Positions 1-47,464 of a DNA stretch of 64,000 bases are shown piece by piece (within the stretch, counting starts at the first letter, position 1; each line of letters starts with the position of its first letter). Made by a program: the position numbers and the translations under genes. The notes beneath the pieces are model-generated. The model was not told the DNA's origin. It saw only the letters and a program-made list of their open reading frames with translations, and did not search any database. The stretch comes from Paecilomyces variotii. Its lineage: Eukaryota. The stretch is from NCBI GenBank assembly GCA_004022145.1, contig RCNU01000006.1; one strand, written 5' to 3'.

Positions 1-202
1 ACTACAAAATTCCTAGAGAGAAATTATGAGACCATTGGAATATCAGCTTTTTCGATCTTTTCACATCATGGCATTTCGTGTGCTTAAGATATCCAAATGC
101 TGTCTAATATATAGGGGTTCCAGTTTCCGTGAGAAGAGGCATCGATATGAAGCATACACTCGAATTTGAGCCCGATAACGCCACCAAGAGGTTCCATCTC
201 TA

Positions 203-1379
203 TCATGTTTTCGTGCCGTCCAACAGCGCCACTATACACGTGCTATTGTCGCTGCCATAACGAGCCGCCGTTACGTTGACAATTTCTTGCGCAATATCCC
301 TCGCTCGCTCGCCGGTTGAAGATGATCTCATAACATGCTCTAGCAGTGCCTTCTCATCTGTCGAGTCGGATACTCCATCACTGCTGCACACCAACGCGTA
401 GCGTTTCTCGGGGGAGAGATTGACCCTCGAAAGATGTGCCTTGTTGGATAGAAAGTCGCCACGGTTCCCTGGTGGTACGACGGCAGCAGTTCTTGATTTG
501 GCACTCATCTCGTCGTCCATGGTGTTCACAGGATTCTTATACTGGAGGTCGCCCAGGGCTCGCGACATATTTAAGGAACCTACGACGATCAGCCAAGAAC
601 CTCCCTGCGATCGAGTTTGCTGGCAACTTACCCACGCGCGTAGTTCCTGTGCTATTGTTTACGCTCCCTCCGGCTTCTCTGATTCGCGCTTTTTCATCGG
701 CGTGGCCCGGTTTATGGGCCTTGGTGAGACGTTGCTAGCACCAGAACCGTTAATAAAGCTCATCTCTCAAGCAGATGAATATGGTCCACCTACCACATTG
801 ATCGGCTTGCCTCCCGAAAGATCTCGTTCCGCTAGCACTATATGCGAGTCCCCTAGGTTTCCTACTACCAATATCCCCTTTGTTAAATTGGCAAAGCACA
901 GAGCTACCGTAGATCCTGAGACGGCAGGCTCTGTACTATGCGACATAAACTTGTTTAGCAGAGCTTCATCCTCGTCAACAAATGCCTCGGCGATAGCGGT
1001 ATCGTAATCACCAGCTTCGAATTCTGGACGCTTCACCAGCAGCTGAGGAAGGTTCTTCCTGGCATGTTCTGCCACCGATGCGGAGCCACTGCGATAAAAC
1101 GTCAGATACTGGTCCAAGAACAAACAGCTTCTTGAAAATGGTCCTTACTGTCCGTCAAATATAGCAAAAAGGGCCAATTTATCTACTGTATCAGCAGGGA
1201 ACTGGTCTGGCAGAATAAACACGTAACGATCCTCTTGGTCCGGCCGGCTTCCTTGTGCCTATTGAGCTCCCGATAACTATAAGTTAGCCTCCTCAATCAT
1301 GCGGTACATAGCCAAGGAGAATGGTATTCACCATGCCTGCGCCGGTGTCAATGAGAAAGACCGTCTCTGATGAAGACAT
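203..1379 (-). CDS. Protein phosphatase 2C (PP2C/PPM) family protein, 5 exons
   Basis: Exons ~1379-1332, 1258-1149, 1088-794, 734-632, 579-203, all with GT-AG introns. PP2C motifs: QGSRPDQED, AIFDGHG, SGST, NLGDS, HKP, SRALGD, SDG and GSDNST. Confidence 0.9.
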
Positions 1380-26327: not shown

Positions 26328-29300
26328 TTACTTCGACGAGGTCATCGTCAGGGTCTGTGCGCTCTTCGCAGCACCGACGGCCGCGGACACGGGAGTTGAC
26401 ACTCGCGTGGGAGCTTGGCTGCGGTTGTGCGCCATATGCGCCTTGACCAGGTGGCCGGCAGCCAGGGCTGAGCAGAGACTCAGCTCTCCGGCAAGAACAG
26501 CAGCGGCGACAATACGAGCAAGCTGGCGCGCGTTGTCACCAGGAGTCGTAGGGTGAGAGCCGCGGACACCCAAAAGCTCAAGCATAGCAGACTGTCCCTC
26601 AAGGATGGTACCGCCGCCGATAGTTCCAACCTCGACCGATGGCATCGAAACGGAAATCTGGAGATTACCGCCCACACTACAACTATTGTTAGCATCTATT
26701 GGCTGCCAGTGAGATCTAAATCCATGAGTGACTTACTTCTTCATGATGGTAATGCAGTTGCTACTCTCGACGTTCTGCGCTGGATCCTGACCAGTAGCGA
26801 GGAAAAGCGCCGTGACGATGTTGGATGCGTGCGCATTGAAACCACCAATGCTTCCTGCGACGGCACTACCAATAAAGTTCTTGCTGGTATTGAGTTCGAC
26901 CAGAGATTCCACGTCAGTCTTCAAGACGCTCTTGACAACGTCACCCGGGATGATAGCCTCTGCCACGACAGACTTGCCACGGCCGTCGATCCAGTTCACA
27001 GCAGCGGGCTTCTTGTCTGCACAGAAATTACCAGATACGGAGATCGTGATCATATCGTCGAAGCCGCATTCGGTAGCCATGACATGGAGCGCCTTTTCGA
27101 CACCCTTCGAGATCATGTTCATACCCATGGCATCACCAGTGGTAGTCTTGAATCGAATGTAAAGGTAAGTGCCTGCCAGGACGGTCTTCATAGTCTGGAG
27201 ACGAGCAAATCGACTGGTGCTGTTGAAAGCGGCAGTCATGACGCTTCTTCCCTCCTCAGAGTCGAGCCAGATCTTTGCAGCACCGGCTCGTGAAAGTGTG
27301 GGGAAGGAAACACAAGGGCCACGAGTCATACCATCGCCGGTGATCACAGTAACAGCACCACCGCCTGCATTGATGGCCTTACAACCTCGACTTGTACTGG
27401 CGACCAGAACTCCCTCAGTCGTAGCCATTGGAATAAAGTAACTCTGACCGTCAATGACCATAGGGCCAGCAACTCCCAGAGGCAGGGGCAGATATCCGAT
27501 AACATTCTCACAGCATGCACCGTGCACAAGACCGTAATTGTAATCCTTGTATGGAAGCTTGGATGATTCCAGAGAGCTGGTAATAGCAGCAGTAGCTGGA
27601 GTCCTGGACACAACAGCGCGACGAATTTTGACGGCCCTCGTAAAAGCATCAACGCGGCTCATGATGTTCTGATCTTCCATGGTCTTCTCCAGGGCGTAGC
27701 CAGGGATTTTGCCGCGCAGAGAGAGGTCGATCAGCTCCTCGTCCGTCAACAGTGACGCACGCTTTTCCTTCAGCATGGCCTCACACTCTTCCCGAGTTCT
27801 CGTCGAGCCGTCTTGTTTGATCTCAACCTTTTGGAACTCGACCTTGCGTTCCACACGAGGCTCTTGTGGGGTGACTCGGGAAGTCTCCGGTTCCTTGATA
27901 CTCCATCTGGCAGCGTTGAAGAGGTATCCGTTCAGTACAATACTCAAGGTCAGAGCGGCAATTATCCATTTGCTGATAACGGGATCTTCGAGGCTCTTAA
28001 GCATACTTCCGATCACCTTTCCACTCACAGCATCCAGGAACTGATCGGTGTACTCGATATCAAACGCGCGACTCTCACCAGCTTGGCCATAGTGAACCGA
28101 GGGAGCCTCCAATTTGTATTTGATCGGAGGTAGCACAGTCACTAGAGTCTCCAATTTCTTACTCTTCGCAGAGACGTAGATCGAATCCAAACCGTTCTCA
28201 GCGACCTTGAAGGGGTCAATCGGAGTAGGGGCCAGAACGTTGGAGATTCGCGAGAGAACAGGGAGACTCGCGCCCTGGTCAGGGTTCCGGAAGGGGATGG
28301 TAGAGAGGTTCACAATGTTGACCAGGATAAAACCGCTAACCATCAGGATCTTGAATTTCGGCACACTGCTCGCCCTGATCTTCTTCCCAAAGACACCAGC
28401 CTCCTTCGCCTTGTTGTCGTCGGAACCCACTTGAGTCCAGTCACTGTTTGAAGCGACATTCTCAGCAACACGTTGACTGACACCATCTTCCTCCAGGGCC
28501 TTCCGGAGAGCAACATGACGCTTGATTCTCGTGATCTCAAGCTTGATACAGAGGATAGTAGCATAGAAGGTGAACAGCAGGACGCAGTCGAAGAACAGGA
28601 TCCAAGCCGCCAGGAAGCAGAACTGTCGCAAGCCTCCCTGCACGCCAGACGCGGCTCCAGCTGTAAGGAGCGCGATCTCGATGCAGTAGTCTCGGACAAT
28701 GGCGAATCCTTCTTCTTTGACAGCCAGTTGGATCGACTCTTGAATAGATTTCGGCGAGTTGGGGCGTCCAGCAGCACCGGGTGCTTGGCGTCTGGTATCA
28801 GTCGAAGCAGAAAGGACAGCTCTCGTGAGGATAATAGACTTCTCGAATCCGACAGTCACGACGAGGAAGGGAAGTCCCTCAGAGAGTAGGAGCACGTTGA
28901 TGGGAACACCCAGCTTGGTCGTCACAAGCAGACCGAACAAAAAAGCGAATGCGCCATTGAAGAGAACCGCTGTGGCGAGCCAAAACTTTGATCCTAGGCG
29001 TCTCATTGACAGGAAAAGAGAAACGAAGGTCAGATGCATCGCCAGGTATCCCAACGTCATGATCACGATGTCAATCGTCTCAGCATGCTTGATCAAGTCG
29101 ACGAAGGAACCCCACGCGTCAGAAAACCAAGCCTTCAGCGGTTTCCGGAATCCAAGTCGCGAGTCACGAGCGGCTTTCATAACCCACTTCTTTCCTTGCA
29201 CCTCATCTTCACCAGTGGCGGAATCCGGGATCTCTTGAACCGCCTTCAGGAAATCAGAGATGTGATCGAAGGGAACCGTAAACGCAAGTGAGGAATCGTG

Positions 29301-29845
29301 AGAGAAAGGAGCAAACAGGTTGGGAGTATGCGGGACCGGCTGAGCAGATGCATTGGCCGGCAGAGGGATCTCCTCAGCCAAAGGTGCCGTCGATTCGGTT
29401 TTAGAGCTGGTGTCCGGAAAAATAAACGTAGCCAGGGCAAGATGCTGAGAGATCTAGAATAATGCTGCATTAGAATCCAGTCGATCCCTGCGACACTGTC
29501 TCCGGCACATACCTCATTGCCTTCCAACGTCTTGCCGTCCTCGACCTGCCATCTCCATGCAGTGCGCTCTCCCAAGCGAAGATTTCTACCACCCGCAAGT
29601 AACGAGTCCACATCCAATTGACCGTTGTTGCGCGAAGTTGCCTCGAATAGACTTCCTTCGAGGAGACCAACGTAGGTAGTACTGGCCAGCAGGGCGACCA
29701 CCACGATCGTGTGGATGGGGTGTCTACAAGCGTGGCCAGATACAGCTTGCAGAATGGGGGTCACTCGATGCTTCAGCCAACTAGGTTCCTGGGCATCTTC
29801 CGTACTGCTTGCTCGAAGCTTCCTTGGCAGGAAATTTGTCGCCAT
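26328..29845 (-). CDS. hmg1: HMG-CoA reductase, 3 exons
   Basis: Exons 29845-29513, 29453-26737, 26676-26328. HPIHTIV motif, sterol-sensing domain (LLSEGLPFL), and catalytic motifs [26 protein letters not shown] and GTIGGGT. Confidence 0.97.
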
Positions 29846-30034
29846 GTTGACGGGTTGAGGAGAATCGCGGCAGTGTGCGCCGCGTCCCTCAGGTTAAGCG
29901 GACGATAGCGAAAAGCCGTGAATCGCGCCCCGTCGAGACTTATTCAGGGACTCGACGTGATGATCTGTAGGAGAGAAGGGACTTTCTTCACTCGTGGGAA
30001 ACAAGCATGGGCGCTCGGAGGAAGAAGTCACGGC

Positions 30035-30120
30035 CTAGAAGAGAGAGCACGCCGTCAGCACATCATCATCATCATCCCATGAGGCGAATTTCAAAGGTGT
30101 TCCCTACACGGGAAACATAC
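30035..30120 (-). other. Probable 5'-UTR intron of hmg1
   Basis: GTATGT donor at 30120, GCTGAC branch site, pyrimidine tract and TTCTAG acceptor ending 30035. Confidence 0.6.
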
Positions 30121-32759
30121 CGGATACAGCGTAGGCAGAGTGGTATAGGGACCACGATATGACACGAAGGTCAATTCCACTCCCTCGTGCGGCGCGTCTC
30201 CCCTGAGAGTCGAAGAGAGAAGCTCCGGGATTGTGGGCGGTGGAGGATTTCGGGGGCCAACAGCAGCAGACCGCCGGAGAGCCAGCTTGCAGAAACTACA
30301 AAACCCCGAGTGGAGACGGGGCGAAAAAGGGACTCCTTAGCGATACGATATTAACTAGGCGATGATACTAATGGCAATAATAGTGAGAATAGCATCAACG
30401 AAGACGCTGGTAATAATCGATAACTACTACTGGAACGCTGGGAACTCGTGGGCGTGGGCGAGAGTGTGCCTGGAAAAAAAGCCGGAGAGAGCCGTCAACC
30501 TGGATACCGAACTGGGGATTATTCCCCTTCAGCCGTACTCTTACTCTCAGCTCAGCTCAGGCAATCCATCTTACTACGTTCTGTCTTCCCAAGGTTCCCG
30601 GTTTCTTGGCTAGCCTAGGTACGCGCACTTGCTTTTTATTAGGCAGACAAGATAATAATATCAACCAACTATGGTATGCGCGCAATCTCGCCCGTATTGT
30701 GCAACGCAAGTTGATATGCTCATAGGCTGTGTCCTCGTGCAATTTCTGGCGCTATCTGGTATGCAAAATGGCCCCCATATGAGTACATATCGATGTTGCT
30801 CGATCTCTCTGTCAGCACTCGGCAGGGTTATTCGTCCCATGCTCCACTTCCAGCCTGTGTAACCTTGTCCGATACATCACATCTGCCAGGGAAGATAGTC
30901 TACCATACTCGCTCACCGAGCCTACCCCGGATCAAGAGATCTTGTATCTTCCCAGTTGCCAGATGACTCCCACATCTCTTGAGGTTCTGCTCTACAGAAT
31001 AATTCTTCCCCAACTGTCGTAACAGCCGCCACCACGTGTGTGGCGTCTCTGCCACCTCCTTTCACGCGGTCAGGAGTCGGGATGCTTTTTCTTCTGCCTG
31101 GGAAATTAGTTAACCCATTTTTTGACCGCCGGTTCTCTAAGCCTGATTAGGTATGGATGGAGATCTTATCCCCTTGGCAGCCCGTCAGCCACGTTCGTAC
31201 TTGTAAGTCGAGGTTCCCCTCCAATCGAGTATGGTGCAAAATCCTGTCGGGTCTCGTAAATTTGAGATATTGCGATTCAGATGGTGCTGCGTGGTCGTGT
31301 GTTACGCACAGAAGACGCAGGTACGGGTTACAGAACAGATACGATCTGCGTTGATGTGGTTGCCGATAAATCACTAGCAGAGAACTTCAGAAAGCCCCAC
31401 AGAACATCCCAGTGTTGCTTCTCGAATAACACTCTGTTAGGTAATTATCCCCGTGGGAGTCGAGGGTCGTGGACTGTGATTCCTTTTGCTCAGTCAAATA
31501 TTAATAAAGATGAATCCTTAAATTGGCATTATTAGACAGTGATTTGTCAAAAGTGGGATGTCGCACGAGACTATCCGCGGTGTGTAAGAATATATAGATG
31601 TATAATGGTGAATAGCGGTATATAGATGGAGTGTTCCCAAGTATCCATTTCAATAACTTACAAGGATAGAGCAGCTAAAATTATAGCTACACCGCAGAAG
31701 AACAATCCTTACCATAACAGATCATCTAGAAGCAAGAGCATTAAAGTAACCGGGAGGATCGAATGGTCCGGAATTGCTTTCTTACAAACTCGGATATCGA
31801 CCAATCCATAATCCCCAGTGTAGGTAAAGGACCACGTGCTCCGATCATCATGGCGCTATTATTGACCTACTTAATCAAGGCAGCTAGTAACGTATAGTTA
31901 TCCTCCAGACACAAGACGACATAGATCAATAAGATCTCCAGATCCGATCTTTCGAGTATGCGAAGGAGCTTTATGGTAAACATTTCCCGCGTAGAGTTGA
32001 CACTGACAACATATCCCATTTCCCCAACTAGGTTATAGGTCAAAAGAGCCCGAGCACGCAATATCTAAGCGTGATTTGACAGGACGAGTGGAGCCACAGG
32101 GAGTGAACTTTATAATGCATTAGAAGGCTTGGAATCTGTAACTTTGACCTGGTAACCTAAGTATAACGACAGACTTTATGAAAAGCTTAATTCATTGGGA
32201 TAAAGGGAGGCACTACTAGACTCCAGAGAGCAGATTGAGTCTACGATATGAGAATGTGCATAAAGTGGCGATTGATAGATCACATGCAGGACAGCGTTAC
32301 GCATTGACGCATTGATAACGGGGCTGCATGGTTGAAGCAAAACGTCGATGCAGCCAAAACCTTCGAGAGGAAATGGCCTCGTGTGCATGCGCAGGGGGCA
32401 CACGCGCCGCAGAAATAAGCCTTTCTCTCGACCATAGTCGAATTACCTCGCAACATGGTTACGCTTAATTTGTACAGTACTATCCGCTTGTCATGGTCTA
32501 GACGGCAGTGTTACGATGTAGGGTCCTTGGTTACTAGAAGAAAAGCGACAGTCTTATCGAAGAAAACAGAAGATACATCGATCGAATCACGGTAAGTTCC
32601 GCGATATCATTGATCTATTCATCAATTGGCTTGACTTGGGCGTTTGTCGCACGCCAAATATTCCTTAAATACACTCAAGGTATCACACATCAGACTTGGA
32701 AGTCCGAGCACAACATAATCAATAGCCATTATCATCATCAATCATCCTACAGCCAACGC

Positions 32760-33200
32760 TTAGTTGGCGTAGTCCTCAGTGTATCCCTGCTCAATGTTCT
32801 CGCGAGCATGGCGCTTGGCCCTCTCACGGTCAACGTAGTCAAGGCCTCTGGTCTCGACCTCACGGTCAATGAAGGCACCAGCGAGACCGGCAAGGATCTC
32901 CTTGGCCTTCTCGTGGCTAGGGGGCTGGCCTATACGCGGATTATTAGCAATCGTGATGGAAAAAGTATACGGGCGAAGCACAATGCGTACCGTTCTCAGC
33001 GACGTGCTTCTCGTAGGCCTTAGCAGCCTCGTAGGAGGCAGCACCGGCAATCAGCTCGTGGGAGAGCTCGGCCTTGTGCTCAGAGCCGGTAAACTCGGCA
33101 TGGTTGTCGGAGAACTGGTCTTGGGGTTGGTTAGCAATGCTGCTCATCATGTAACATGGGGAAATAAAAGAGAAAGGGGAGGCCTACCGAAGAAACCCAT
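32760..33200 (-). CDS. cipC: CipC-like (DUF3759) small protein, 3 exons
   Basis: Exons 33200-33188, 33119-32991, 32929-32760. MGFFD, HKAELSHELIAGAASYEAAKAYE, SHEKAKEILAG and ETRGLDYVDRERAK. Confidence 0.9.
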
Positions 33201-36200
33201 TGTGATAGATGTGGTGAAGAGTGAAAAAGTGTGTAGATTTGTTTGTAGTGTGCTGATGATGGTAAAGAGAGATACTCTTGGAGGGGCAGAGGAGGGGTAT
33301 TTATGCCCTCCCACCGACACTCAGCACCATGTATGCCACGTACCATGACAGCAACACCTTTCCCGATTCCGTGATCGTTCTGCCTCATCCGACGTTTCAA
33401 ATCTAAGACGCCCTAGGAACCCCTGTGGTAGAAGCCATAATGACCCTCGTGCTTGGAGTCCCTCATCATCCACATAGGCTGGGTGCGCATCTATCTTCGC
33501 CCTATCGAAGCGCGGATCACAGGCACGGTCCCCACTTCTCACCCGCGAAGCTTTTTAGCTGTCTCGAGTGATCGGCTCGGCGTATTATCGAGATGGATGA
33601 GGCGCGGGGCTCAGATATCTAGCTTCCGATTGATCGTGACGGGAAGGACGTGGAGTCTGAACTCCATGAACAGATCTTCGGGATTGCCACGGGGAACACC
33701 GTCATTGAGCTTCAGCGGTGGAGAGTATTTGCCAACTGTGGATGAGTGCGGGCTGGATATCACTAGAGATAGTCCCCGAATCCAGCTTGGCGAATATGCC
33801 TATCAGAGCTCGCAACAGTGAGGAGAGCACGCTTACGCAGTCGAGTAATCTGCCCTACCTACCTAGGTAGGTAGTACATACATCCATCCATATGTTGCTC
33901 AACCACTGTACTTAGGGTGGGAAAATCAGTGCGTCATTGGGAGAGCTCGCAAAGTCTATGCTAATACTGATATACATTAGCAGTTTCTCAACATATAAGT
34001 CAAGTTAGTTAACTAGTTAGTTAGTTAGCTGTAGATACAGTTGTTATTAATAATTAGTTGCCACTTTTTCTGAGGCTGAGACTGCTGAACCCGCTTCAGT
34101 TACTTATTGGAAGTGGAACAAAGCGAGTGGGCTGTGGCGCGGCTCGCAACCCAGCCTCAATCATGGCTTAGCTCTTCTGAATAGGTAATTACTTCTCATC
34201 ACGAAAGACCGCCACTGCGCTAATCCAGCCCATCGATGGCTTCATTATTATCTTCTACTTGTCCTTTTTGCGTTCAAGACTTCAGTGTCGAGTGTGGAAG
34301 GTGCCATTGACGCAAGCTGTAGCTGATCTCTCGCAATTTCAATGAGGGGAGTGGGATAACGCAAAGCATTCCGTCGAGTTGAGAGACGCATCTAAGAGCT
34401 GCCTTATACTGTTTGTTTCAGACTGCGAGATCGTCGAATATTGTCTCTTCACCAAAACTAGCGGTGAGAGACGAAAGTGGAACTCGTCTGGTAGCATATG
34501 GATCGGAAACGAGCCTGTGATAGGACTTCCTGGCGCCGATTTACATGCAATTCGCAAGCGTCTAATCCAGATGAACCTCCTGCAGGAGCCATTTCTTCCC
34601 ATCCATGGCTTAAGATCAACACTATCAGCCCGCAGTGTATGTCTATGGCGAAGTACTCGTCTAGTGCTGAAAAGTTGAGTTCGGCCAGCGGGCTTAGCTT
34701 TATTTGTGTCTGTCCGAGCTCCACCGTCCTACGTATCGTCGTATTGGGACTTTAGTAAAATCTCTCAACAGCTCTCCACATGTATGTACGTCTAGAGTAG
34801 AGTAGAGTACTGGAGGGGCCAGGAGGGCAGACGAGGAGGGGCTCTCAAGGTACTTTACCCCTCCAGGGAAATCGGTAACGCAGTCCAGAGGGATAATGTT
34901 GATGATTCTCAAACGCTCATTAGGCACGCATCCTCTTGGCACCTCTCTATGGTCATAGGGAGCTTGGTTAGCTCAGAATGAGAGACAATAGGACATAATA
35001 TAAATATTATCAAGGTTGCGCTGGGATGGGAACAATGCGTTTCTTGACCGGGAGAGGAGGTTAAAAGAAGCAGCTCTCTGAGCAAAGAAAATAACGGCTT
35101 TTATATGCGCATATGATTTATCAGATTGACCTTATTTCCTTTGCAGGCCCACGTGGTATATGCTCACTCTCATGCAGCTTTCTTGAGTATTGAGTTTTTC
35201 AACGTTACTGTCCTTATTCCTATTATCCTCATGCTGCTGTTCAGCTTCTGGACACGATGGCATCAGCAGCCCCGCGGGGGCTGCGCAAGGAAAGCTTATC
35301 AAGCACAGCTGCTCTCTGATAGGCTCTCTCTTACCTGAAACGGGCATTTAGCCGGTGTTTCCCCTTCCGTTATCCGACACGATTTGTTGGTCCTCAGGCG
35401 CCGAAATCGCGCTCCGATTCAGCCAATCCACTTCGTCTCTTAGCCACCCATTGAGCAACTTCGCAACAATCAACCCACCACAGCGCCTTTTGAATCTCAT
35501 CACTGCGAAAGCGTGCAATATCTGCCAGACTTTGTAGATTTCTCTAGGATTCCTCAGACAGCTAGTGGAGATGAGGGAATACCAAATTTGTTTGCTTTTC
35601 GCGTCGGTAGTACTTACAGCCCTGTATTTCGTATGGAAGAGCTGGCTTGTACTGCACCGCGAACAATATGCCTTGTCTAACATTGTCCTCCTATTAGGTC
35701 TCGAGATGAGAGTTATCGCGTTCGATTGATTCAGGTACGGTGGAAAGCTGCATATAAATGGGATAGAGCCTTTATGCTTGGGCTCATGGATATTTCGCGC
35801 CCAGTCACCTCATCCTATTGATTCAGATGCGGCGTCAGCTGGTGAGCAGGGTAAACATATGGCCACAGATGCAACCTCTGCATTAGACCCTGAAACGTGC
35901 CTTGGTGTGGTGGACTACACTGTTCCAATAGTAGATCTAAGGCTACGATTAATTGGACGAGAACTATCATGTTGGCGCCCTGCTAGATCTGTCTCCTCCA
36001 GATTCTATGCAACGCTGCAACATCAATCAGCAATCTATAGCCTTGATACCAGGTTCCATCTTGTCGCATTCTTCTGGATCTCCACGTTTGATCCTTATTG
36101 TTGGTGTCGTATAAAACTTGATCTCATCAATTTGCAGGAGCAGACTAGAAAGATTACAAGCACTGTGTCTCACGGGTGAATATGCACTTGTTCTTCCATC

Positions 36201-36535
36201 TACCAACACAAGTGTGACTGAGGTTCAAGAGCTCGATTCACTCCCAATGAATAGAGTATTGTTGGATTAGTCCTGCGTAGGACATGTTTCCCGTGAGTAT
36301 ATCCTTATCCATTCAGCCGTCATTCATTGCTTCTCGTTTGTCTGTCTCAGAATCCATATAATAGTCATTGTTCAACACCCCTTGCAGTGAAGGCTCTCAA
36401 TCGAAATCACTATGTCATTGTCATGCTGACTCAAATAAAGATTTCTATATCCTCCAGGGTCTCATCATTCGCTCTCTAGATACTATATACTTGCCACTCA
36501 TTTTTTTCAGTTCTTCAGCAAAAATATTGCCCAAC

Positions 36536-37702
36536 ATGAGCGCTGTCAGCAAGCTGGTCTTGACGGCAGTCCTCAGCCTTAGCCTCATAGCTACCACGAT
36601 CGATGCTCACAGCTGGGTTGAGCAACTCATGGTTATTGCACCGAATGGCACCTTTATCGGTTCTCCAGGATATGCAAGAGGAAACGTGCTGCGTACTGCT
36701 CCTGGATTCAGTGACCCTACGATGGTATACCTGCTACCTCCAGACGACCGGGCGAATGTGATCTATCCGACCGACCCGATGTGCAAAGACACACAGCGGA
36801 CGAGAAATCAAACAGTCGGCAGCCCCAGACTACGAGCTGCGCCTGGTGCTGCTATTGCGCTTCGTTACCAAGAAAACGGCCATGTCACTCTCCCATGGAA
36901 TCAACCGGGAAAGCCCGAGAATCGAGGCACTCTATACGTGTACGGAACGACACAACCACGGGAAAACGACACTTTCTTGGGAATTCATAAGGTATGGAAC
37001 CAAAACGGAACTGGGGGTGACAGGCGAGGAGTTCTGCTCTCTGTCCAGAATTTCGACGATTCGCGTTGTTACCAAATCAACAACGGCAACATCTCGACCC
37101 ACCGCCAAGCTGTATTTCCTCACCAAGCGAACCAGCTTATGGGGGCGGACCTCTGGTGTCAACAAGACATTGCCTTGCCCAGTGATGCACCCACTGGGAA
37201 GCCATATACTCTCTATTGGGTTTGGGATTGGCCGACCTTGCCCAATATTGACCCCAACCTGCCAAAGGGAAAGCTTGAGATGTATACCACCTGCATGGAT
37301 ATTGACGTTGTGGAGAGTCCCAAGGTCCATAACAAGTTGGTCGCAAATTATGATAAGGACCAGTCCCTCAACGAAGCCGCCATCCCTGGTCAATTTTCAG
37401 AAATCTTTGATGCCCAGCGGTCTGAGAGACCTACAAGTCCTCCCGACTGCAACTCGACTGTACCTTCTGCGACAGTTCCGCCTGCGAAGCAATCACCAGC
37501 GACAACATCGATGTCTACGAATGCAGGAACTCCACACCTGTCGTTCGTCACTGTCACAAAGACAGTTACAGAAAGTCGCTGTGTCCAGACTTCTGAGACC
37601 AACGACAAACGTGACGTTGGGGAGGGGGAGGTTGAGATGACCGTTCCATTCTATAAATCTCCACGTCTACCTCCAAGAGTTGGTGGTAGACCAGTTCTTT
37701 GA
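36536..37702 (+). CDS. Secreted DUF7492-type protein with an LPMO-like N-terminal histidine
   Basis: Signal peptide ending IDA, then mature HSWVEQ. GYARG, YQENGHVT, YTLYWVWDWP, EMYTTCMDI, and a Ser/Thr/Pro-rich tail. Confidence 0.85.
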   Translation: MSAVSKLVLTAVLSLSLIATTIDAHSWVEQLMVIAPNGTFIGSPGYARGNVLRTAPGFSDPTMVYLLPPDDRANVIYPTDPMCKDTQRTRNQTVGSPRLRAAPGAAIALRYQENGHVTLPWNQPGKPENRGTLYVYGTTQPRENDTFLGIHKVWNQNGTGGDRRGVLLSVQNFDDSRCYQINNGNISTHRQAVFPHQANQLMGADLWCQQDIALPSDAPTGKPYTLYWVWDWPTLPNIDPNLPKGKLEMYTTCMDIDVVESPKVHNKLVANYDKDQSLNEAAIPGQFSEIFDAQRSERPTSPPDCNSTVPSATVPPAKQSPATTSMSTNAGTPHLSFVTVTKTVTESRCVQTSETNDKRDVGEGEVEMTVPFYKSPRLPPRVGGRPVL

Positions 37703-38269
37703 AAGCTCATGAATCTAGAATTGGGACTCATGGCGGATACTGTCGATTTACTTAACGCGCATAGAAGCAACTCTCCTTTATGATACGACTTGATATCTCC
37801 ATCTTTGTCATGACGGCGTACCCGGTTTTGCACATACATGTCCATTGTCATTCGTTCAAAGCATTCCTCTCGTTTTATGTTTACGAAGACGGCTACAATT
37901 CGAGGGTTGCAGGACTACCCTATGTGTGTACTTCTTTGTCTTCCTTGAACAAGGATTTTCGAGACAGGCTCTCGAATAAATCCTCTGCCAACACTTTACT
38001 TGGGGCGTTTAGACGTTGTGGTTTGTACTTTGACTCATGTATAGATGATTTTACCTAGGTGATGAATGAATGAAGATACGCTCTGAGCATGTATGAACTG
38101 AACCTTCTTTTTACATCTCATAGAAAGCAGGCGAAGTCCCAGTTCAAAGTGACTCTATACATTACTAATAGACCCGAATGCTACGGCATCACTGACATGT
38201 AGCACTTTGGTGAGATGATAACGTTCTGGCTAGGAGATGCGAAGTACTTCTGGGTCGTTCTGCCATAGC

Positions 38270-38382
38270 GCAGATATTATCTATTCCGATGGATCCTGCA
38301 TAACTGGGCAGATCGGTACGCGATACAGATTATCAAAAATCAAGTAGCGGTGATGAAACCCGGAGCAAAGATCATAGTGTAG
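38270..38382 (+). pseudogene. O-methyltransferase (Methyltransf_2 family) gene relic
   Basis: Translates AD(frameshift)YYLFRWILHNWADRYAIQIIKNQVAVMKPGAKIIV*, the catalytic HxW segment of fungal OMTs. No surrounding ORF. Confidence 0.8.
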
Positions 38383-39941
38383 AAGAAGATGTCTGGGCTA
38401 CAGCAGACACGCGCTGGAGTATGTCCTCGATAGAATAACCGTCTCAACAGAGACATTCTCTCCAGAAGTCTAGATTCAATCCTGCATGATCAGATTCAAT
38501 ACTCTGCTCTGTATATGTATCTCACGTCGTGTCGTCCTGGTTAGGATATGATAGATGCTCTACCGACTGTACCCTAGATACCATAAGTAGTATCTCAAGA
38601 GCATCAGACTTGCGCTAATCCATTCTGGGAAACCCACATGAAACACACTAAAATGAGATCCGTCTCACGTGGAAAGTCACATGAGCACGCCCTGCTGGAC
38701 AGAAAGAGACAAAAAGACTGAACGGAGTTTTGAGTGTGGATCTTTTTTTTTAATCAGAGGGGCTGAGGAGTTCCTGTGGGACTGCAAGTTCATTGATTGT
38801 CATTCGGTATACTTCGAAGCGCTCTGATTCTGGATCTCTCGTTGAAGGCTGATATTAATAGCCAGCGAAGGACCAACCTTTACCCTGGACTGAAGTTACT
38901 GAACCAACCCTGACTCGAACCACTCGCCGAGAACCGAGAACGGTCTCCAGGTAATCTCCGCTGCTCCTGAGATCCCTCTCTCATCCATCCATCGTCTCCC
39001 ATTCGTGACGCTCCTTGCCTCCGTCTTCGACCTACGATCCTTTCCCGGGTCCTTTCTGACTTCGACAGTCCCTTCTCGCGTGCTCCAGTGGTGCGGCGCT
39101 GTTATTCGCTCTCGTCTATGCATCCCAGGACGACCTTGCTATATTTAGAATAGGGCCTTTGACTGTCCCTCGAAACCGCGGGACGAACGAAGGGAACGAC
39201 TGTCCACCCACAAGCCATCTCACAGTCGACCACTGCACAAGGCCGCGCGCATCTGCACTTCAGACAGTTGTCTTCCATCTTCTCCTTCCAGAAAACGCCG
39301 CTTTCGAGACGGTGCCATCCCACAGCGCACGGCGCACACCGCTCCCCCCCTGCCGCTCTCTAGATTATCAGACTGCCCACTCCATTCAGCAAGAGCATTT
39401 CTTTGCTCGTCCACCCTACTGGGTCCTCTGAAGTCGCTATATCGGGCTGGGCTACTTGAAATTGGTTCGCGACAGAAACTCGACCGTCCAGCACGCGTTA
39501 TACTTCTCCCTCAGGTAGAAGCAGACGGAGCGAACAGACCCGTACCCATTGACGGTCGTCATCCTACACTAGACCACTTCGCACGAAGCTTGCGTGGAAG
39601 ACACAAGCATTGCGCCTTTCTACAGTGCTGTCTGTTTATTCTGTTTGAAGGTGATAAGTCCAGTTTAGCACAGTGTTAGAACTGTTTCGATTCTTAACAG
39701 CTGGACTGTCTTACTCTGCTCATAAGGGCTAGGCCTGAGTATCCGCGCGACTTGGGTTCCTCCCCTTTTATCTAGCAGAAACACAATTTGTCGGTGTTGC
39801 GTGGCTACGAAGAAATACCGGAGATCGCGATGCAAATATAGGGTGCAATCTTTGCGGTGCATTTCGAATCGGGTTATTAGGAATTTCAACGCGCGATATT
39901 GAAGCGAAATCCTTTTTTCGTGTTTTAGTGATCTGACTCTC

Positions 39942-41342
39942 ATGGCAGCAACCATGTCATCTCCTCCGACCTCTCAACCGGAGCATGTCGCATCCCCAAA
40001 TCTCGCTCCGCTTTCTGCTCCTCTAGGCGCAGATAAGCCAGTCAAGCGGGGAAGCCTGCAGCGCCCGAACTCATACACCAGAGATCGGTTATCTACATAC
40101 TCAACTGCTTCATTAGCTTCCCAGAATAAATCGCGTCCGGTATCTTATGTCATTCCGGCATTCCATTCGAGCTTGCCTTATACTCTTGTCCGGGACTTTG
40201 CGTACCCGCCAGTGCATCCTCTCCATTACGGCCCGCCTCCTGTGCCCTCTGGGGTCACGACTCCCATGAGTGAGAATCGGCGACTTTCCGATCCACCGCC
40301 ATCAACGTGGGATAGCTCGAGGGGGCAGTGGTCAGCGGGACCTTGGACCACCGAAAATATCTACGGACATCAGCAATTACCTGCTATGTCTTTTGGTGAC
40401 GGTCCCCCATACAGTGAAGATGAGGACCTGCATAGTCCGGTGGTGACGACCTCGCGTCACCGGAAAAACAGGTCTGGAGCAGGCTACGATGGGAGAAGGG
40501 GACGGAGCCCGGGGGACAGTGGTCGAGAATATTCTGGGGATGACCGTGGGCAGTTTATCAGCATGAACGGTGATGGCAGTGAGACATACTATGTGCGCGA
40601 AGAAGGCGCCACTGAGGATGGCCCTGGGGGCGAATTTGTGACCTATCCAGCAAGCGAAGGCAGATATTCACACTTGACTCCTGGGGCTTATGGCAGCACG
40701 GGTGTCGCAGACTATGTCAAAGGAGATCAATATTTCGATCCTGATATGCTCGATTCAGACGATGAAATTTCGGACACAGACGGCTACTCTCGAGACTACG
40801 AATTCTCAATAGCCTCACCAGACGAAGAGATGCACGGGAAGGCTGTGGCGCTTTTTGATTTCACCAGAGAACATGAGAACGAGCTTCCACTGAAGGAAGG
40901 CCAAGTTATTCTTGTCTCGTACAGACATGGACAAGGCTGGTTAGTGGCGGAAGACCCCAAGACAGGCGAAAGCGGTCTTGTTCCAGAGGAGTTTGTTCGA
41001 CTTCTACGACATATCGAGGGTGGCTTGACATCACTCAACGGGGAGATCAACAATGCAGTGGCCGAGAACAATTTGGATATCAACGCTTCAGATGCAGGCG
41101 CAGATGAATTTCAGAGCCAGAACAGTTTGATGCCCGGGAATGGGCAGAGCAACGGTGGCAGTGGAAGCATCAGTGAGAAACATCCCTCTGTGATATCAAG
41201 ATTTTCTACCAGCAGCAAAGATCTGGATCCTTACCCATCTCACCTTCTAGGTGGCAGTCAGGGGAAGACATCTCCCCAGCCAGTCGAAGAGTCTGATGGC
41301 GATCGGACCGAGAATGGCAATCCCGCCAGCGCGACGACCTGA
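39942..41342 (+). CDS. nbp2: SH3-domain HOG-pathway adaptor Nbp2-like protein
   Basis: VRDFAYP..HPLHYG N-terminal motif and an SH3 domain GKAVALFDF..EHENEL.LKEGQ..GQGWLVA..GLVPEEFV. Confidence 0.88.
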   Translation: MAATMSSPPTSQPEHVASPNLAPLSAPLGADKPVKRGSLQRPNSYTRDRLSTYSTASLASQNKSRPVSYVIPAFHSSLPYTLVRDFAYPPVHPLHYGPPPVPSGVTTPMSENRRLSDPPPSTWDSSRGQWSAGPWTTENIYGHQQLPAMSFGDGPPYSEDEDLHSPVVTTSRHRKNRSGAGYDGRRGRSPGDSGREYSGDDRGQFISMNGDGSETYYVREEGATEDGPGGEFVTYPASEGRYSHLTPGAYGSTGVADYVKGDQYFDPDMLDSDDEISDTDGYSRDYEFSIASPDEEMHGKAVALFDFTREHENELPLKEGQVILVSYRHGQGWLVAEDPKTGESGLVPEEFVRLLRHIEGGLTSLNGEINNAVAENNLDINASDAGADEFQSQNSLMPGNGQSNGGSGSISEKHPSVISRFSTSSKDLDPYPSHLLGGSQGKTSPQPVEESDGDRTENGNPASATT

Positions 41343-42337: not shown

Positions 42338-43329
42338 ATGGCTGCTGAAGAGAATCGAGAGTCTGAAATCATGCGTGTTGACATGCCTACATGGGATAGG
42401 TATGATAAGCTCTGGTGCTTACGGGCCCTTTGGGACCCTGCAGAATACCAAAGGTAAGAGCAAGGCGCGATTGTCGTCCAGCAGCAAAAATTAGGAGCTG
42501 ACATCATTTCATTTACTACTACTTAGCTTTCGTGAAAGCCAATTGAAAATTCCGCGTGATATTATGGCGAGATGGCCCAATTGGCCGGAGGCGATACAGG
42601 ATAACCAGGAGAGAATTGACTGGATACTGATGCACACGCCCGACGGCCCTACGTACGTGAATTTTTGGACCTCTTCTCTTTCCTCGTCAGGGGCCTTACA
42701 GAGGCACTCTGGTACAATTGTCCCCCCTTCCCAGTATAACTGGAGAAACAATCACAGCATTAGACGCTCTGACATAGCTATTCCTCTGTCTAGTGTACCG
42801 GAGACAGAACCCACTGGCCTGTCGAGACTGGCATATCATTGCATCGAAACTTTGAAGCACATCTTGGAGCACCATTCCATGCTAGCAGACTCGCAGAAGG
42901 TAAACATTCTTGCAGCCCTAGAAGCCTATCGAAGCGGGAGGTTAGATCCGAAGCCGGGAGATGTAACATATTGGTATGCCGGAGTCCTTAAGGAGGACCC
43001 TGGACCCCAGGGTAGCCAAAGCTATGCAGAAGCCATGGACCGGTGGGGACAAGAGCACGGAGAAACCACTCTTTGGATCGAGCCGGTATATATTATTTCG
43101 ATTTTGATTGATCTCCTTTTTTCTTTCTTTACTCCATCTGTCGCTGTCGTGCCTACATCTTGTCAATCCCGTGTTGGAGAGTTCGAGAGTGATTAATATG
43201 ATGATGGCTTTCTGCCAGTCGACCAAAAAGGAGAACTCCTTGTCGGCCTACCTGGATCTCTAACATGATTAATGCTCACCAAAATAGGTCGAACCAGTGT
43301 GGGGTGGCGGTAGATACATGCCACAATGA
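42338..43329 (+). CDS. Hypothetical (lineage-restricted) protein, 3 exons
   Basis: Exons 42338-42453, 42527-43085, 43288-43329 join in frame through GT-AG introns. No recognisable domain. Confidence 0.6.
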
Positions 43330-45541: not shown

Positions 45542-47464
45542 CTATCCTAGTAGGTCATCCAGAGCAGAACCACTGGGTTTGTGTCCTTGCTGCGGTTGCT
45601 TGGACTGACCAAAAGCTGGCGTCGACGACGTCGAGGTAGGAGTAGATGCGGACGGAGCGGGGGTTCCCCAGATGCCGGCGCTGGCCTTCTCCTTGGAGAG
45701 GCTGGCCAGGTTGGGGCCCTTGTTCTGCGAGGGAGAATTCTTCTGGATACCTGCACTGGCGCTGGCAGCAGACCAGAGCGAGCCGAAAGCATCACCTCCA
45801 GCCTTGGAAGTCGAGGCTGACGGCTTGTGGGATGATGCAGGGGAGGCGATAGAGGATACACTGGCTCTGGCGCTCGTAGGCTGGCCTGTGGTGGCAGCGG
45901 AAACAGAGGTGAAATAGTTGGGCGCTGGTGCCTGGAAGCCTGTCGGCCTTGGTTGTTGTCTTGATTGCAGAGACGCCAGGGAACCTTGAGGCGACATAGG
46001 AGAAGTCAAACTGCCGCCGGTTGGTGTGGGAGTAATGGAAGAAATGCCAACGAGGTTGGTCAAGTTAGCATTCTGTGTGCCCGACACAGGCTTGGGCGCA
46101 GCGAACTGAGTAGTCGACGCAGTGGAGGATGGAGGAGCAATAGAGAACTGATTAGACGAAGTAGGCTGAGGAGCGGCCGGAGCAGCAGGTGCTGGAGTTG
46201 CGGACTGGAAATCGTCGAATTCGTCATCATCCGCGGTGTCGTCGAGCAAGCCGTTGCCAGCGTTGCTAGCAGGTTGCTTGCCGGCAGCAGTCGAAGACGA
46301 CGTCGTGACAGGCTCGTCTCCAAAATCGAATAGATCCGGCACCTCCTCCTTGGGCTTCTCAGGCTGCTTCGTCGCACGCGGTTGGCTTGCTACACGGCGC
46401 TGGCTGGGGGCCGCATCCGCTTCATCGTATTCATCATATTCCTCAAAGCGATTCCCTCTCCGTCCCGTATCCTCGAATTCGCTCGTGTTGCCTCCATAGC
46501 CACCGCCATCGCCGTAGACGCCTCCACTGTAACCTCCATAGCCAAGGGATTCGCTACCAAAGCCTCCATATCTACTAGTCGATCCAGAAAGACCGCCCCG
46601 GACACCAAGACCACCTTCAATCCCACCGAATTTGTTCCGGTTTGCCCGCGCTTTCTTTCTCTCTGTGCGAATCAGGTCGACGTCGCTCAAAAGCTTCGCC
46701 AGCTCCTGCGCCCTGTTACGGACGTTGATTCCCTGGTCTTTTCCGTTCTGGTCGATGTAGTGGAATTGGCGCAGCATGCGCAGGAGAGATAGATGCGATC
46801 GCGCATCATCGACAACTCGTTCTGAACCGTTCTTGACGAGGAATTCGAGAAGTTGGAGTGCCTATCAACAATCAATCAGTATTCACATGATTGAATTTGG
46901 ACCTGTATCCACGCCAGGAAAGTGGCTCGGGCTCGTACTTTGTATATCTGTCTCCACTCCTCCGCGCTCTTCTCCGTAAATCGCTTGTAAATCATAGGCA
47001 TAATCTCGTTCAACAGCTGGCTATAATCGAACAAGTATAAATGTCAGTTAAACACCTCCTACAATGCCATTACCGAATAAACCGATATCGGAAAGGGGGG
47101 GACCGGTGCGACTAACTAGCTATGTGTTCCATTCGCGATCTCCTGCATCAACGTAGACGAAGCACCCCATGGCTCATTATTAGTAGCCTCTCGGACCTGT
47201 CAAAATGCGCGTAAGTCGTACGTTTCGATTTATCCGGCCGCAGTGTTCGCGTGGCGACCAACCTTCGACTCCATCTCCGTGTAGTTCATGACAGCTAAAG
47301 ACTCCCAAGTTAGTACCTATTATCCAGGGACGATTCCCCTCCCTCCAGCTACTGTTTCCCGCTCCTATCATGCAAAACGTACCATTCTGGACTTTCCGGA
47401 CTCCGGCCTTGATGTCGTACAGGGTCAGGTTGCTGACCTGCTCCTTGAGAGAGGCGAAATCCAT
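45542..47464 (-). CDS. ent3: Golgi/endosomal epsin (ENTH domain) Ent3/EpsinR-like, 5 exons
   Basis: Exons 47464-47383, 47294-47263, 47196-47117, 47020-46939, 46861-45542. VREATNNEPWG, WRQIYKALQLL, GKDQGINVR, and adaptor-binding DLFDF/DEFDDF motifs. Confidence 0.93.

Follow-up and report, generated by a model that had tools for sequence, protein, structure and literature searches.

The gene at 36536..37702 of the window, that is, of the whole 64,000-nucleotide stretch of Paecilomyces variotii DNA analysed here, encodes a member of the DUF7492 family that, by analogy with lytic polysaccharide monooxygenases (LPMOs), very probably carries a copper His brace. The explanation that we place first, and hold about as strongly as we doubt it, is that the protein is a secreted copper His-brace enzyme of the LPMO superfamily that belongs to a distinct family and whose most likely substrate is chitin or beta-glucan in the fungus's own wall or matrix, where the enzyme would oxidise this polysaccharide as the fungus grows or develops. 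An earlier note on this DNA had called the product an unclassified LPMO or LPMO-like protein. The fold, the residues and the lack of a solved sequence relative bear this out, but the idea had already been put forward in 2017 and 2019, when the family was proposed in silico, and this gene is one of its ordinary members.

The features of the gene are listed below in window coordinates. Mature residue 1 is His25, so that mature numbers are full-length numbers minus 24. The motifs named in the earlier note (IDA followed by His at 36608, the YQENGH His at 36881, YTLYWVWDW, and EMYTTCMDI with Tyr at 37283) were all found in the translation at the positions it had given, as was a Ser/Thr-rich tail with a KR site.

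36536..37702, plus strand: coding sequence of the DUF7492 gene ('LPMO16' group), 388 aa, a single coding exon whose reading frame translates without stops
36536..36607, plus strand: predicted signal peptide, aa 1-24, ending in I-D-A, with a putative cleavage site supported by homologue counts of -1/-3 residues and hydrophobicity
36608..37315, plus strand: LPMO-fold beta-sandwich domain, aa 25-260 (mature 1-236), predicted from the Pfam match, the AlphaFold model and structural searches
36608..36610, plus strand: His25 (mature His1), codon CAC, after TTIDA, candidate first brace His
36872..36883, plus strand: E-N-G-H ending at His116 (mature His92), codon CAT at 36881 in YQENGH, candidate second brace His
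36902..36904, plus strand: Gln123 (mature 99), in a loop insert after His92, covarying with Glu224
37055..37060, plus strand: Asp174-Asp175 (mature 150-151), near-invariant
37205..37231, plus strand: YTLYWVWDW (W-x-W), aa 224-232, penultimate strand, aligning with AA11 YALAWTWF
37277..37294, plus strand: E248-M-Y250-T-T-C253, putative second-sphere Glu (codon GAG at 37277), axial Tyr (codon TAT at 37283) and Cys
Codon at 36782, plus strand: Cys83 (mature Cys59), putative partner of Cys253 (mature Cys229), from joint loss and coupling
37406..37699, plus strand: tail rich in Ser, Thr and Pro that holds a TVT stretch, KR at aa 358-359 (37607-37612) and a basic end, without a GPI-type hydrophobic end and without a carbohydrate-binding module (CBM)
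36293..36440, plus strand: 5' leader intron of 148 nt (GTGAGT...CTGAC...AAG), removed in contigs from two runs, each belonging to a different study
35607..35697, plus strand: second GT..AG intron, 91 nt long and lying upstream of the former, supported by a single short contig from a single run

A contig of run X1, which we take by guess to be RNA, spans 35697-38130 with the canonical 36293-36440 intron removed and none removed within the ORF, and the same splice was found in run X5, an RNA library of a separate study. These spliced contigs across the locus indicate that the DUF7492 gene is transcribed with one coding exon. Runs X2 and X3 were unspliced over the locus and were therefore excluded as evidence of transcription; their contigs have two extra bases at the stop codon (37701) together with many substitutions, and apparently come from another strain. 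The intron at 35607..35697 may belong to the same leader as the DUF7492 gene. The leader (35300-36535, plus strand) is seemingly long, with two introns and 13 upstream ATGs from 35300, the longest upstream ORF being one of 106 codons (35859-36179) without a Pfam match, and such a leader could serve translational control. Overlapping ORFs in other frames (36882-37640 on the plus strand and 36932-37330 on the minus strand) were treated as shadows, and Rfam gave no match within 29500-40000.

The DUF7492 label given to the protein in the earlier note was correct, since the Pfam domain (PF24320) was matched at aa 23-283 with an E value of 9.6e-120 and 399 bits against a gathering cut-off of 27. The nearest named relatives were hypothetical proteins of P. 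variotii (98% identity), and A. niger An07g08250 was 67% identical to the query over 310 aa. One DUF7492 copy was found by the genome search, whose counts are lower bounds. Homologue searches at E <= 0.001, three word-based and one full HMMER, gave 1200, 1082, 1111 and 592 matches, and the homologues were taken from the best 120, 120, 120 and 150 of these, respectively. Among the matches listed, identity across classes was 45-70%, and named homologues came from Aspergillus, Penicillium, Uncinocarpus, Exophiala, Blumeria, Podosphaera and Pseudogymnoascus, and further from Sticta, Trapelia, Gomphillus, Sphaceloma, Diaporthe, Colletotrichum, Sporothrix and Phyllachora. We take these genera to represent five ascomycete classes, with obligate biotrophs among them. 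Two homologue rows tagged as prokaryote MAGs are likely mislabelled fungal DNA.

The relation to known LPMO families was then sought at several levels. A PDB sequence search with the protein returned no relative at E <= 10, and a search with the family profile returned no true relative, its eight weak matches stemming from the low-complexity tail. None of the Pfam families PF03443 (AA9), PF03067 (AA10) and PF22810 (AA14) exceeded its cut-off in the query or in 150 diverse homologues, with sub-threshold matches at E <= 0.01 to AA9 in 5 and to LPMO_10 in 1 of the 150; BIM1-like (X325) and Egh16-like domains were likewise not found in the same set. By sequence, the protein thus lies outside AA9, AA10, AA11, AA14 and X325. 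In the ESM Atlas, the nearest named clusters other than DUF7492 were AA14 with a score of 0.84, although all such matches scored below 0.9 and are leads only. As for CAZy AA18, one paper cites, in the part available, a bacterial CelOCE study under the range AA13-AA18, and dbCAN assigns one AA18 in a Flavobacterium in the entries accessible to us, both of which suggest that AA18 may be a family different from DUF7492. The available portion of the CelOCE paper itself does not mention AA18, however, and a review, in its accessible text, groups AA18 with chitin, starch and pectin enzymes.

We next examined the candidate copper-site residues in an HMM alignment of 469 unique sequences including the query (471 rows), all of which were retrieved by similarity to the query. 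His1 was His in 437 of the 437 rows covering the position, Glu89-Asn90-Gly91-His92 were kept in 468, 468, 469 and 469 of 469, and Tyr226 in 456 of 457, so the conservation of the two His and the Tyr on which the earlier note had staked its proposal is nearly complete and exceeds what chance would give. Position 224 was Glu or Gln in 455 of 458 rows (Glu in 399, Gln in 56). All four sites were present in 422 of the 424 rows that cover them, one of the two exceptions being an alignment slip. In addition, Glu113 (mature 89), Asp174 and Asp175 were near-invariant acids, with the two Asp kept in 469/469 and 468/469. As a proxy for the leader, 343 of 379 homologues had the His motif with at least 12 residues upstream; a hydrophobic 8-mer directly preceded the motif in 337 of these 343, and Ala, Gly, Ser or Cys stood at -1 in 339. 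From this family-wide pattern, we infer a cleaved signal peptide that would leave His as the first residue.

Couplings between positions were also computed, from a shallow alignment (Meff 227) of related sequences that overlaps the alignment given to AlphaFold. The top 30 include Val4-Leu85, which joins the His1 strand to the strand before His92, as well as Gln99-Glu224 and Cys59-Cys229. Gln99 and Gln224 occurred together in none of the 56 Gln224 rows, and it is possible from these patterns that Gln99 is a second-sphere partner of Glu224. Cys59 and Cys229 were lost jointly in 18 rows that are related to each other. This group, which includes Lomentospora, Cephalotrichum and Coniochaeta (P0203, P0207, P0246, P0471, P0501, P0504 and relatives), keeps the brace residues.

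An AlphaFold2 model of residues 25-290, built with 137 sequences, had a pLDDT of 96.4 and a pTM of 0.93. In Foldseek, all 22 matches listed at E <= 0.001 were AA9 or AA10 LPMOs, with top TM-scores of 0.35-0.46. A VIA search of 48,161 chains, which was unbiased by Foldseek, likewise placed LPMO or LPMO-like proteins in all of the top 22 places (Z 9.6-7.1, rmsd 3.1-4.2, 124-166 aligned residues, 9-21% identity), every one of these alignments beginning at model residue 1, and the LPMO fold anticipated in the earlier note was thus recovered. The Z scores were 9.6 for AA15 (5msz), 9.0 for AA9 (5acf), 8.8 for AA10 (4oy7), 8.5 for AA11 (4mai), 8.1 for AA13 (4opb), 7.7 for X325 (6ibh), 7.1 for AA16 (7ze9) and 6.2 for AA14 (5no7); note that values below 8 can reflect a common arrangement, according to the tool's own warning, and that the first clearly unrelated fold appeared at Z 6.2. 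The predicted model is therefore an LPMO fold without a close solved relative. LPMO family scores were middling, near-tied within about 1 Z unit and favoured no family, indicating that they give no pointer to the substrate. A search of viral folds gave no match at E <= 0.001, the best being baculovirus GP37 at 3e-3.

Of all LPMO structures matched, those of AA11, a chitin-active family (AoAA11 4mah/4mai, AfAA11B 9exj, 7p3u), had the highest identity and also the lowest rmsd (18-22% and 2.9-3.4, respectively, for AoAA11 and AfAA11B). DUF7492 and AA11 have in common an E-M-Y-x-x-C last strand, a W-x-W strand, the Tyr and Glu site, and a low-complexity tail with KR. Model residues 1..236 align to 1..150 of AoAA11 (4mah), which places Tyr226 on Tyr140 of EMYMNC if the last strand is ungapped; on the same proviso, the alignment of model 1..237 to 26..177 of AfAA11B (9exj) places Glu224 on Glu139. 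An hhalign comparison with the three AA11 proteins of this genome gave the same Glu/Tyr/Cys register (probability 65, E 6e-5) with a score of 36, where 30 column shuffles reached no more than 18, although it covers the last two strands only (40 columns), and a global hhalign misplaced His1 and left the second His unpaired. The AA11-like reading of EMY as the last strand is thus in agreement with both the structural end points and hhalign. His92 follows model strand 82-87, which couples to the His1 strand, and the couplings lend support to a putative clustering of His1, His92 and Tyr226 in three dimensions.

The differences from AA11 are nevertheless considerable. DUF7492 had no sequence match to AA11 structures at E <= 10, whereas a true AA11 of this genome matched them with values of up to 6e-88, and its domain is about 236 aa long as against about 150 in AA11. 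The second His stands in ENGH followed by a 14-residue insert in DUF7492 but in A-x-HGGGSCQ in AA11, and DUF7492 has in addition an invariant Cys154/Cys184 pair and the DD motif. Compared with AA9, AA10, AA13 and AA15 (5nlt, 4oy7, 4opb, 5msz), the fold agrees all the way from His1 to the final strand (Z 8.1-9.7), but identity is just 9-17% and Pfam matches stay sub-threshold. AA16 (7ze9) and AA14 (5no7) lie on a common tree branch with the family in the available part of PMC6950343; their structural scores (Z 7.1 and 6.2) were below those of AA9, AA10, AA11 and AA15, and DUF7492 had no AA14 Pfam match.

On the preferred explanation, the protein would work as follows. The gene is transcribed and spliced, as seen in the contigs. 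Cleavage of the signal peptide behind Ala24 would expose His25 with a free amino group, as the family-wide sequence patterns suggest. His25, through its amine and ring, and His116 would then hold one copper with Tyr250 in the axial place, by analogy and from the predicted model. After reduction, Glu248, with or without Gln123, may position H2O2 in the way that Glu/Gln does in AA11 and AA9, and oxidative cleavage of a glycosidic bond would follow. Finally, the Ser/Thr-rich tail might hold the enzyme in the wall or be trimmed at the KR site.

A His brace is no guarantee of lytic activity, as stated in the available passages of PMC13353379 and PMC12186267, and we regard lytic activity of the DUF7492 protein as fairly likely. 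The main rival, which we consider unlikely, is a non-lytic copper His-brace protein that either binds or acquires copper as X325/Bim1 does or supplies H2O2 as an oxidase. LPMO-like proteins without lytic activity exist, and X325 has in common with DUF7492 the fold (6ibh, Z 7.7, rmsd 3.5, 135 aligned residues), the N-terminal His and a wide fungal spread unrelated to biomass decay, which the distribution of DUF7492 does not follow either. X325/Bim1 is GPI-anchored, uses an Asp as a ligand and lacks demonstrated lytic activity according to the parts of PMC10952591 and PMC13353379 available. In DUF7492, a fourth copper ligand could come from the extra acids (Glu113, Asp174 and Asp175), as it comes from the Asp in X325. 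On the other hand, a hydrophobic, GPI-type C-terminus was found in 0 of 469 homologues, although the test does recognise an X325 gene of this genome; no BIM1-like Pfam match was obtained; and the Z of 7.7 for LaX325 is about 2 below that of the best match. An hhalign comparison with this genome's X325 gave a probability of 0.1, which is a weak test with a single-sequence template. Furthermore, the second-sphere Glu/Gln before the Tyr is kept in DUF7492, whereas the two X325 proteins that this genome already has carry Gly or Ser at the place equivalent to Glu224, as read by eye.

As for the oxidase form of this rival, AA16 proteins act mainly as H2O2 sources. The accessible text of PMC12186267 describes a second-sphere Glu/Gln that positions H2O2, with Tyr plus Glu as the AA11 arrangement, and also attributes high oxidase activity to the Tyr and Glu site of AfAA11B, so that the same site can be read in favour of an oxidase. 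AA14 activity, for its part, is described as controversial in the portions of the literature available. If DUF7492 proved non-lytic despite its Glu-x-Tyr site, it would be a test case for telling LPMOs from copper carriers. The His-brace repertoire found in the genome (L002, L004-L010) comprised one AA9 over the cut-off, three AA11-like proteins, two X325 and Egh16-like proteins at three places; AA14 and LPMO_10 gave no match in this search, whose counts are lower bounds.

If the protein is lytic, we think it likely that it acts on the fungus's own wall rather than on a plant wall. The genes around it are as follows.

26733-29845, minus strand: HMG-CoA reductase
32760-33350, minus strand: DUF3759, a small multi-exon gene between HMG-CoA reductase and the DUF7492 gene, CipC-like
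39942-41342, plus strand: SH3-domain protein
42564-43196, plus strand: ORF without a Pfam match
45542-46777, minus strand: ENTH-domain protein

In A. fumigatus, too, the locus numbers place the orthologue AFUA_2G03690 beside hmg1 (Afu2g03700). The DUF7492 locus has the look of a stable housekeeping region, and an own-wall role accords with this better than plant decay does. Blumeria, Podosphaera, Phyllachora, lichen fungi, Uncinocarpus and Exophiala have all retained DUF7492, and plant-wall enzymes are few in powdery mildews. A nutritional LPMO acting on a plant polysaccharide (cellulose, xylan or pectin) appears quite improbable to us. It would agree with best structural scores that include cellulose-active AA9 and AA10, with AA9 as the nearest structural template in the text available from PMC5320794, and with the grouping with AA16, AA14 and AA11 in that from PMC6950343. 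However, the tied Z scores do not point to such a substrate, no CBM was found in 150 diverse homologues, a single copy was found beside the housekeeping neighbours HMG-CoA reductase, SH3 protein and ENTH protein, and members of it occur in obligate biotrophs, lichen fungi and Onygenales.

A factor for host interaction or non-self recognition that reuses the LPMO fold, as do the Egh16-like TrsA and the AA11 protein CWR-1, seems to us very improbable. Such precedents are given in the parts of PMC12377627 and PMC9550227 available, DUF7492 occurs in many plant pathogens, and the effector NIS1 matched part of the fold in the VIA search (Z 6.8). The family is, however, equally present in saprotrophs and food moulds, its conservation across classes is high, and no Egh16-like Pfam match was obtained. 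Taken against all of these rivals, own-wall remodelling is favoured by the lack of a CBM or GPI tail, the kept Glu/Gln and the presence in powdery mildews and lichen fungi.

The family was proposed as a putative LPMO group, with A. niger An07g08250 as its representative, in 2017 (PMC5320794), and was named LPMO16 in 2019 (PMC6950343), where its substrate was called unknown; in the portions of these papers available, the group takes up one sentence and a tree position, without active-site analysis, a link to DUF7492 or experiments. An07g08250 was absent from four supplements of PMC5320794. The LPMO16 set of Voshol et al. contains 4% Metazoa and 6% oomycetes in the part accessible and may be wider than DUF7492. 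The identity to An07g08250 makes DUF7492 and LPMO16 the same family on sequence grounds, and this link is new here, as are the Glu/Gln without a counterpart in X325, the lack of a CBM or GPI tail, and the retention in powdery mildews and lichen fungi. The group is distinct from the similarly named AfLPMO16, an AA16 enzyme. In the open literature (subscription papers and CAZy lay outside the search), we found neither the name DUF7492 nor any biochemistry, structure or mutant of DUF7492/LPMO16; locus tags of Blumeria, Exophiala, Marssonina and A. fischeri had no mention there, and of the other tags tried only An07g08250 did, in two papers from one group.

DUF7492 is highly conserved in filamentous ascomycetes of any lifestyle, yet it still bears the label of a domain of unknown function. 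With each new LPMO family so far, the known range of what copper His-brace proteins act on or do has grown. Should DUF7492 work on the wall of the fungus itself, it would be a missing piece of wall remodelling. A bolder reading, which we offer tentatively and think improbable as a whole, is that of a separate active LPMO family in at least five filamentous ascomycete classes including powdery mildews, which would attack an own-wall polymer without a known LPMO (e.g., beta-1,3- or alpha-1,3-glucan) by means of a distinct second sphere of Tyr-Glu and the loop-insert Gln. Were that true, DUF7492 would represent a core oxidative step in wall remodelling and a new CAZy AA family.

With regard to the tail, KR was enriched in the homologues (134 of 375 tails, as against a mean of 53 and a maximum of 70 after shuffling). 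PIR repeats, which are known from yeast wall proteins and link proteins to wall beta-1,3-glucan, were present in 3 of 469 homologues, compared with a shuffled mean of 0.12 and maximum of 2. Found among the 150 diverse homologues, these repeats speak for an own-wall substrate, and their rarity in the family speaks against it. The three homologues (P0216, P0226 and P0272) carry PIR-type repeats SQxxDGQxQ in the tail, and the cluster of P0272 also contains a protein from Gomphillus americanus, a lichen fungus.
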